From assembly GCF_058153355.1 (NCBI RefSeq), contig NZ_CM177019.1: DNA of 64,000 bases. One strand, 5' to 3'. The stretch's first letter is position 1. Every line of letters starts with the position of its first letter. The notes under the pieces are model-generated. The model was given only the letters and a program-made list of their open reading frames with translations. It was not told where the DNA came from and searched no databases. The translations under genes were made by a program, and so were the position numbers. This document shows positions 8,984 through 11,468 of this stretch, one piece after another.

Positions 8984-8991
8984 AATTAAAA
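8984..8991. repeat. Target-site duplication AATTAAAA, left copy
   Basis: 8-bp direct repeat immediately flanking the IS66-family element. Confidence 0.8.
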
Positions 8992-9021
8992 GTAAGCGGC
9001 TCGCCAGAACCGTATTGATAT

Positions 9022-10593
9022 TTACTGAGAGCTCAGATCAACTTTCCAGGGCAACAGATCGCGTACCCGGTTTGCCGGCCAGTCCTGGATATGTTCAATG
9101 ACGTAACGCAGCCACTTTTCTGGCTCCACATTGTTCAGACGGCATGTGCCGATCAGCGAGTACAACACCGCAGCATGTTCACCACCGCTGTCAGAACCCG
9201 CGAAGAGCCAGTTTTTCCGGCCTACGGCCACTCCCCGTAAGGCGTTCTCTGCGATGTTGTTGTCGATTTCCACCCAGCCATTACTGCAGTACACGTTCAG
9301 TGCATCCCACTGTTTCAGCAGGTATGCGAACGCTTTTGCCGTGTCCGAGTGACGCGACAGTGTTTTCATCTGTTGCTGTATCCAGTCATACAGTGACTGC
9401 ATCAGTGGCGCGGCTCTGGCTTTTCTTGCCGCCAGACGCTGTTCTGCTGAACAGCCCCGGACCTCTGCCTCGATGGCATACAGTTCACCGATACGCTGCA
9501 GGGCTTCCGTGGTGATGTCGGTGGGCACTCTTGCATGCACATCGTGGATTTTTCTCCGGGCATGAGCCATACATGCGGCTTCCGTTATTCTGCCGGATTC
9601 GTACAACGCCCGGTAACCACCGTAAGCATCGGCCTGAAGCACTCCGCTGTAACCGGCCAGATGATTCTGTGGATGGATACCTTTCCGGTCCGGGCTGTAC
9701 GCGAACCAGACCGCCGGAGGCATTTCCGAACCGGCGTTACGGTCATCACGAACGTAGACCCACAGCCGGGCAGTCCTTGTTTTACCGCTGCCCGGCTCCT
9801 GGACCGGAACGGGGATATCATCGGCATGGACTTTACCGGGCATCAGCACATACTGGCGCAGGATGTCATACAGCGGTTCCAGCAGTTCAGCAACAGCACC
9901 TGTCCAGCGCCCCAGTGTGGCACGGCTCAGCTCCACGCCCTGACGACGGTATATTTCTGACTGGCGGTATAACGGCAGATGGTCTGCATATTTTCCAGCG
10001 ACAACATGGGCCAGAAGCCCCGCTCCGGCATAACTGCGTGCAATGGGTTTTGAAGGCACCGGAGCCTGCACGATATGGTCGCACCGGCAACAGGCCAGTT
10101 TCGGACGTTGTGTTTCGATAACCTTAAAGGCGCTGCTGATAAGCTCCAGTTGCTCTGACACATCACATCCCAGAGAACTGAGTTCGCCACCACAGGCCGG
10201 GCAGCATTCCTCTTCCGGACGGATGACCCGGGTTTCACGGGGAAGTGAGGCAGGTAACGGTTTACGGGCTGAAGACTGGCGCAGGGGAGATGGCAGTACC
10301 GGGTCATATTGCTCACCCAGCGTTTCCGCCATTTCTTCCTGAAGAGCGCTGATTCGCTCCTGTGCTTCCTGTATCTGCCGTTCGGTTTTTGCACGAAGTT
10401 TTTCTGAGCTTTTACCGAACTGCATGCGCTGCAGTTTTGCAACCAGCGCCTTCAGCCGGTTGATTTCGGAAGCATAAGCCGCCACCCGCTGTGAGAGCAG
10501 GCGGTTGTATTTCGCCATCTGGCGGATGGTGTCCTGTTGCGTCTGCAACAGTGCCCGCAGGCGGGCATTCTCATGAGCAAGTGAGGTGTCCAT
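9022..10593 (-). CDS. IS66-family transposase TnpC
   Basis: 523 aa; coiled-coil N-terminus, Cys-rich zinc-finger motif CPACGG...CCRCDH, DDE-type core. Confidence 0.85.
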
Positions 10594-10612
10594 ATCCTCA
10601 CTTTACAACGGG

Positions 10613-10960
10613 TTATATGCGGATGCCAGCGCGTTCCGTTCGTTTCGGGTGTTTCCAGTCGATGCCCTCAAGAAGCATGGATAACTGGGCCGGAGTAAGG
10701 TGCACCTTGCCGTCACGGGTGACCGGCCAGACGAAGCGGCCCCGCTCCAGGCGTCTGGTGAAGAGGCACAGTCCGTCACTGTCAGCCCACAACACTTTTA
10801 TCTGGTCACCCCGGCGTCCGCGGAAGATGAACAGATGCCCGGAGAACGGGTCATCCTTCAGGACGTTCTGAACTTTTGAGGCCAGGCCGTTAAAGCCATT
10901 TCGCATATCGGTGATACCTGCAACCAGCCAGATACGCGAACCTGCAGGGAGAGATATCAC
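10613..10960 (-). CDS. IS66-family accessory protein TnpB (Orf2)
   Basis: 115 aa; typical size and position; ATGA overlap with upstream orfA. Confidence 0.8.
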   Translation of the reverse strand: MISLPAGSRIWLVAGITDMRNGFNGLASKVQNVLKDDPFSGHLFIFRGRRGDQIKVLWADSDGLCLFTRRLERGRFVWPVTRDGKVHLTPAQLSMLLEGIDWKHPKRTERAGIRI

Positions 10961-11385
10961 CGTCTCAGCTCCTGTATAAGCAAGGACAGCAGATTTTCAT
11001 TCACTGCCCCGTTCAACCGAAGGGTGCCGTTTCTGAACGTAATCTCACAGGAGATGCTGTGTATTTCCGGTGTTACTGACGGTCTTGCGGTCAGTGGCTC
11101 ATTAGCCGGAGCAGTTGGGAGTTGGGCATCAATAGTGACAGGAATTAACTGAGATTCTCTGCCTGATTCTGATGATGGCAATTTTATCTTCCCCTGCCGC
11201 CATTTCTGACGCCATTTGAACAACAGATTGGCATTAATACCATTGTCCAGGGCCAGTCTGGAAATTGAAACACCTGGCTGGAATGATGCTTCTATGAGTC
11301 GTTGTTTGAATTCAGGAGGATAATTCAGGCACCCTTTAGGCCTTCCCGGAGAGGCATTTTTTTGTATATCTGACATTTTTATCAC
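10957..11385 (-). CDS. IS66-family accessory protein TnpA (Orf1)
   Basis: 142 aa; first gene of the IS66 operon. Confidence 0.75.
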   Translation of the reverse strand: MIKMSDIQKNASPGRPKGCLNYPPEFKQRLIEASFQPGVSISRLALDNGINANLLFKWRQKWRQGKIKLPSSESGRESQLIPVTIDAQLPTAPANEPLTARPSVTPEIHSISCEITFRNGTLRLNGAVNENLLSLLIQELRR

Positions 11386-11460
11386 CCACTATTAATTTAG
11401 TGGTGGATACTTTGTCCAAAGCATCGGGAATTTGCCAGACGGTCCTGATAAGACGCTTAC

Positions 11461-11468
11461 AATTAAAA
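11461..11468. repeat. Target-site duplication AATTAAAA, right copy
   Basis: Identical 8 bp immediately after the right inverted repeat. Confidence 0.8.

Follow-up and report, generated by a model that had tools for sequence, protein, structure and literature searches.

Insertion of a chimeric IS66-family element in the tail-fibre assembly gene of an ipaH-carrying prophage

The prophage and its interrupted tail-fibre assembly gene

The 64-kb stretch of DNA analysed here (the window) includes a Mu/phiP27-like, ipaH-carrying prophage in a chromosome of the Shigella/EIEC type. Its baseplate and tail genes match DNA_circ_N, Phage_Mu_Gp45, GP46, Baseplate_J and Phage_Mu_Gp48 and are thus of Mu type, and the tail module (1394–8365) is 96.6% identical to phage phiP27. 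Positions 1–1386 are IS4 (99.8% identity), which adjoins the tape-measure gene at a position equivalent to the middle of the intact gene in E. coli FDAARGOS_944. An intact ipaH-type effector gene is found just past the tail-fibre genes, on the minus strand (14053–15696). In FDAARGOS_944 the corresponding locus carries the same tail module and, behind it, another tail-fibre gene and then a DUF4376 gene, ipaHe, a methyltransferase gene, zinT and msrQP. The chromosomal flagellar region shares 99.3% identity with that of some E. coli, and this, together with the ipaH-type gene, places the source among strains of the Shigella or enteroinvasive E. coli (EIEC) type. Exact-sequence look-ups in public records returned neither the IpaH protein nor the second tail-fibre protein.

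Directly behind the tail-fibre gene, beginning 3 nt past its stop codon, lies a tail-fibre assembly gene that is now divided into two plus-strand fragments by an insertion sequence. The 5' fragment (8841–8991, codons 1–50) runs into the insertion sequence to give an 86-aa open reading frame ending at 9101, and the 3' fragment (11469–11863) holds the last base of codon 51, codons 52–181 and the stop codon. Codon 51 (ATG, 11467–11469) spans the right copy of the target-site duplication, and a 131-aa product beginning at this ATG was annotated by the gene caller in a draft assembly. The sequence-only reading of the locus had claimed that removal of the element together with one repeat copy restores a single Mu U-like reading frame, and this was upheld: joined in silico, 8841–8991 and 11469–11863 form an open frame of 546 nt (181 aa) in which a script check found neither a stop codon nor a frameshift.

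The restored 181-aa protein matches Caudo_TAP (PF02413) across residues 40–178, scoring 88 bits against a gathering cut-off of 22.1, which together with its location immediately behind a tail-fibre gene, in a prophage whose baseplate is of Mu type, supports the assignment of the target as a tail-fibre assembly gene. It resembles other Caudo_TAP proteins (Mu U, lambda Tfa, P2 G) both in the PF02413 match and in following a tail-fibre gene within a baseplate module of Mu type, and the label 'Mu U-like' is fair because the 5' end of the gene is 76% identical at the DNA level to gene U of Mu-like phages. The locus differs from those systems in that the gene is interrupted past codon 50, and in that neither an invertible G-segment nor a gin-type invertase was observed there, a second pair of tail-fibre and assembly genes being present instead. 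Neither the 86-aa fusion frame nor the restored 181-aa protein was on record in exact-sequence look-ups of public records.

Empty sites, which the earlier reading had suggested seeking in related strains, do exist. A query of 849 bp (the rejoined site with flanking tail-fibre genes) was matched over at least 80% of its length in 90 complete E. coli genomes, and in the two in which the uninterrupted gene was examined, CFSAN029787 and FDAARGOS_944, it is an intact 546-bp gene. The sequence most like the target is that of CFSAN029787, where the gene belongs to a prophage not syntenic with that of the window; this gene contains one AATTAAAA, at offset 143 as in the rejoined frame, and its translation is identical to the restored frame at 176 of 182 positions (stop counted). 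The prophage of FDAARGOS_944 is syntenic, and its gene is annotated 'tail fiber assembly protein'. The window aligns to it on both sides of the insertion sequence, the two alignments overlapping by 10 bp at the target, where the site reads CATAAAAA and not AATTAAAA.

Target-site duplication and origin of the interrupted allele

The element is bordered by direct copies of AATTAAAA at 8984–8991 and 11461–11468. Both copies were read directly and checked by script, and the 8-bp duplication proved as clean as first described. AATTAAAA occurs six times on the plus strand of the 64-kb window, so that the chance of finding it at one given position is ~1e-4, and on this ground we rejected chance identity of the flanking 8-mers. 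For IS66, the reported length of the target duplication is 8 bp (PMC6778807), and the related copies described below likewise carry 8-bp duplications of their own (CACCGGAC, CCTTATTC and CTTAAATC).

We conclude, with a probability of roughly 0.93, that an IS66-family element inserted itself by transposition at codon 50/51 of this tail-fibre assembly gene, and nothing within the sequence itself was found to speak against this reading. A different history can be envisaged, in which the interrupted allele was imported ready-made by homologous recombination between the mosaic, multi-copy tail-fibre modules of prophages. Modules of tail-fibre and assembly genes that are ~95% identical do occur at up to five places per E. 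coli genome, on unrelated prophage backbones, and the best match to the target sits in a non-syntenic prophage. However, the interrupted allele was not found in another context in other records, and the event that created the allele would be the same transposition in either case. We regard such an import as improbable, and retain transposition into this gene as our reading of the locus.

Since the insertion falls after codon 50 it splits the Caudo_TAP domain, and the gene is thereby inactivated. With IS4 and the IS66-family element both present, the prophage has been struck by at least two insertion sequences, and because IS4 lies in the tape-measure gene, the loss of the tail-fibre assembly gene was probably without consequence. 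The host is unlikely to be affected by the lack of this tail-fibre chaperone. The insertion is a routine event, involving a known kind of element and a decaying prophage.

Anatomy of the element

The element is a complete IS66-family insertion sequence of 2469 bp (8992–11460), carried on the minus strand with its genes in the order tnpA to tnpC, antiparallel to the gene it interrupts. The three genes had been described as full-length and uninterrupted, and each is indeed an open minus-strand reading frame with a full-length match to IS66-family domains; all three proteins also pass curated models for the family, in agreement with the original family assignment. The largest, tnpC (9022–10593), encodes a DDE transposase of 523 aa, which matches Pfam DDE_Tnp_IS66 (PF03050, 4.4e-104) at profile positions 1–283 of 284, shows further Pfam matches to zf-IS66, LZ_Tnp_IS66 and DDE_Tnp_IS66_C, and scores 479 bits with NCBIfam NF033517 (cut-off 180). 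It is separated by 19 nt from tnpB (10613–10960), which begins with GTG and encodes an IS66 accessory protein of 115 aa (Pfam TnpB_IS66, PF05717, 7.1e-40; NCBIfam NF033819, 127.8 bits against a cut-off of 50). The GTG start of tnpB overlaps the stop codon of tnpA in the sequence GTGA (10957–10960). The product of tnpA (10957–11376) is a helix-turn-helix accessory protein of the short IS66 type (Pfam HTH_Tnp_1, 6.8e-11; NCBIfam NF047595, 88.9 bits against a cut-off of 74); the list of open reading frames starts it at a GTG (142 aa), and the ATG at 11376 gives the 139 aa annotated in public records.

The ends of the element are formed by imperfect inverted repeats, the tnpC-proximal IRR (8992–9013, GTAAGCGGCTCGCCAGAACCGT) and the tnpA-proximal IRL (11439–11460, reverse complement GTAAGCGTCTTATCAGGACCGT), which are identical over their first seven bases and match at 17 of 22 positions, so that the length of the element and the GTAAGCG type of its ends are both as originally reported. 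These repeats are absent from the top pairs of the repeat finder, their exact seed being just 7 nt, and were verified directly. Work by Han et al. in 2001 and ISfinder are said to describe IS66 ends as imperfect inverted repeats of ~20–30 bp beginning GTAA(G/C)CG, and GTAAGCG is found at both ends here. The gene order, the overlap of tnpA and tnpB, the GTAAGCG ends and the 8-bp duplication are typical of IS66, and at the level of sequence the element shows all the features of the family that we considered.

Relationship to ISCro1-type elements

Comparison with elements of the ISCro1/IS679 type relied on E. coli copies that carry the NCBI annotation 'IS66-like element ISCro1 family'. Over element positions 1–1968, comprising tnpC, tnpB and the adjacent end, DNA identity to these ISCro1-type copies is 97%; the remainder does not align. 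Within the shared part the likeness is close: TnpC is identical at 516 of 523 residues (98.7%), the IRR at 39 of 40 positions (a single difference), and both elements are flanked by 8-bp duplications. The ISCro1-type copy in E. coli A34, for example, is flanked on each side by CTTAAATC; it is 2704 bp long, compared with 2469 bp here, and encodes a TnpA of 216 aa.

The other end of the element is of different descent. TnpA is of the short type (139 aa, NF047595), whereas that of ISCro1-type elements belongs to NF038385; it is 77 aa shorter, lacks the N-terminal ~90 aa of the ISCro1-type protein, and is 38% identical to it in the 120 aa that the two share at the C-terminus. On plasmids, the closest other group of TnpA proteins is ~64% identical. 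The IRL of ISCro1-type elements is GTAACCGTCTCATTTAAACCGT, unlike the IRL found here, and their tnpA/tnpB junction is TGATG, in contrast to the GTGA with a GTG start in the window. The break in homology falls exactly at the start codon of tnpB, where the window reads GGTGATATC and ISCro1-type copies read TGATGATATC. Because homology ends at this start codon, TnpA is only 38% identical and the IRL differs, we describe the element as a chimera, made up of ISCro1-type tnpB, tnpC and IRR and of a tnpA and IRL from a different IS66 lineage.

By the ISfinder convention, two insertion sequences count as isoforms when their DNA is at least 95% identical from end to end and their transposases are at least 98% identical. 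The transposase, identical to that of the NCBI-annotated copy at all but seven of its 523 residues, lies within the second limit, but only 1968 of 2469 bp align, and tnpA and the left end are not those of ISCro1-type copies. Judged on these alignments, the element is not simply ISCro1 under the usual rule, and the hybrid may be without a name in ISfinder.

Other copies of the hybrid element

Near-identical copies of the element are already public, annotated as IS66-family genes. Four full-length matches with 95.7–95.9% identity lie on four complete plasmids of E. albertii, one of which, on pESA134_1 (NZ_CP070285.2, 95.9%), is inserted in a Tn3 transposase gene with CCTTATTC on each side. The E. 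coli draft GCA_047897835.1 has a further copy, on a contig of 39.6 kb (99.8% identity, 5 of 2469 bases differing), where it adjoins a serine-protease autotransporter gene and has CACCGGAC on each side. These copies share with that of the window the length of 2469 bp, the three genes and the ends, including an identical IRL, but occupy other insertion sites, and in their records the element is unnamed.

We considered whether the chimeric arrangement of tnpA and tnpB-tnpC could be an artefact of assembly, in which reads from two IS66 elements were joined. Repeats of the IS66 type do break short-read assemblies of this lineage, yet an identical 2469-bp architecture, with the same junction, is present in the four complete E. 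albertii plasmids and in the 39.6-kb E. coli contig, and the two copies whose flanks were examined, that on the E. coli contig and one of those from E. albertii, are each bounded by their own target duplication. With the same junction in independent records, mis-assembly as the source of the chimera is scarcely credible and was rejected.

The five differences between the window and GCA_047897835.1 are all synonymous and fall within 94 bp of tnpB; at three of these positions the base in E. albertii is that of the window and at two that of the draft copy, and the cluster has the appearance of a small patch of conversion. When the window is compared with the E. albertii copy, tnpC differs at 71 nucleotides, which result in 12 amino-acid differences, a ratio consistent with selection on the coding sequence.

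The hybrid is otherwise seldom encountered. No second copy was found within the 64-kb window, and no full-length copy among 5426 complete E. coli genomes, where matches were confined to ISCro1-type copies, alike over the first 1968 bp, and to a truncated fragment in strain 2013C-3033. An exact 30-nt probe for the left end gave no match in 100,044 species-representative genomes, and the element is therefore rare.

Age and mobility

The clean duplication and intact transposase genes had been taken to suggest a relatively young and possibly active copy. Given that the same 2469-bp layout occurs elsewhere with its own 8-bp duplications, it is reasonable to view the element as young and probably mobile, and independent insertions that each carry a separate duplication suggest that the hybrid is able to transpose. 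Short draft contigs that are 100% identical to the window exist, and in GCA_015332025.1 the first base of one contig corresponds to window position 11462, one base within the right duplication. Short-read assemblers break at the edges of repeated elements, and a contig break at the edge of this one is what would be expected if that genome held more than one copy.

It is also possible, although we think it unlikely, that the same insertion left a fixed and immobile relic, either silenced, or lacking a functional promoter, or hampered by a hybrid tnpA and IRL that fit poorly with a TnpC of the ISCro1 type; its intact appearance would then merely reflect the short time since insertion. Consistent with this, the window holds a single copy, the element is rare among complete genomes, and a simple scan upstream of tnpA detected no sigma-70-like promoter. 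On the other hand, the hybrid is present at three or more independent sites, each with an 8-bp duplication of its own, all of its reading frames are intact, the differences between copies are mostly synonymous, and the contig break in GCA_015332025.1 falls at the edge of the element as if that genome had more than one copy. Of these two accounts we prefer a mobile element, and we lean, if only somewhat, towards the more specific proposal that it is a functional natural chimera, in which TnpB, TnpC and the right end of an ISCro1-type element would function together with a TnpA and a left end from another lineage.

Proposed course of the insertion

The chemistry of the insertion can be inferred by analogy with DDE transposons and with IS679/IS66. 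TnpC, TnpB and the helix-turn-helix protein TnpA would assemble together on both of the GTAAGCG-type terminal inverted repeats, TnpC being the DDE transposase and the other two its accessory proteins, and the 3' ends of the element would be joined to target phosphates staggered by 8 bp. Repair of the resulting gaps would duplicate AATTAAAA. For IS679, all three genes are reportedly needed, and the present element would presumably require them as well. Elements of the IS66 family may move either by cut-and-paste or by copy-paste. As for the hybrid itself, its ISCro1-type tnpB-tnpC-IRR segment meets the foreign tnpA-IRL segment exactly at the tnpB start, and in this form it has moved to several sites.

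Implications

When the locus is annotated, both halves of the tail-fibre assembly gene belong together as one pseudogene, and the three genes of the insertion sequence as one mobile element; the finding has little import beyond this. The locus adds one further case of prophage decay driven by insertion sequences in genomes of the Shigella/EIEC type, with the adjacent ipaH gene left intact. For the IS66 family it is of modest interest, as the tnpA/left-end module has been exchanged exactly at the start of tnpB, in an element that appears to be still mobile. If the hybrid is indeed functional, modules comprising TnpA and the left end would be exchangeable between IS66 lineages, and the element would offer a natural handle on the role of TnpA.

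Sequence variation among copies of the hybrid IS66-family element

The copy of the element in E. coli GCA_047897835.1 differs from that in the window at five positions in total, all of them synonymous and all lying within a 94-bp stretch of tnpB (2756–2849 in the GCA_047897835.1 record, equivalent to window positions 10745–10838). At these sites the plasmid-borne E. albertii copy carries the window base in three cases and the GCA_047897835.1 base in the other two. The pattern resembles a small tract of gene conversion between IS66 copies and not mutations accumulated at scattered sites.

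A truncated fragment of the hybrid element, comprising tnpA and the start of tnpB (96.4% identity), is present in E. coli 2013C-3033 (positions 2700–3510 of record L004), and a normal ISCro1-type copy lies approximately 2 kb away on the same chromosome. The two lineages therefore co-occur within a single chromosome, which would allow recombination between them.

Variation in the prophage and its flanking genes

Sequence comparison identified an IS4/InsG match at 99.8% identity at window positions 1–1386. The start of the window falls within this IS4 copy (region considered, 1–1393). The junction between IS4 and the prophage tape-measure gene corresponds to a mid-gene point of the intact tape-measure gene in E. 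coli FDAARGOS_944, and draft contigs of the same lineage end at this junction. As IS4 abuts the tape-measure gene, it represents a second IS hit in the prophage. In its distal portion (2009–2451), the tape-measure gene has no megablast-level alignment to the FDAARGOS_944 prophage, which is elsewhere 96–98% identical to that in the window; judged from this comparison, the segment is a local mosaic patch.

The interrupted assembly gene is followed by a second tail-fibre gene and a DUF4376-type gene (11887–13873). The second tail-fibre product (470 aa) contains a phage_tail_N domain, and the window has ~140 additional bases near 12292–12428 compared to FDAARGOS_944, located where the fibre has its alanine-rich repeats.

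Immediately past the prophage tail-fibre genes and ahead of zinT-msrQP lies an ipaH-type gene (14053–15696, minus strand) encoding a type III effector E3 ubiquitin ligase, which is intact in the window (547 aa) whereas the syntenic copy in FDAARGOS_944 is frameshifted. The presence of this ipaH-type gene points to a Shigella/EIEC-type host.
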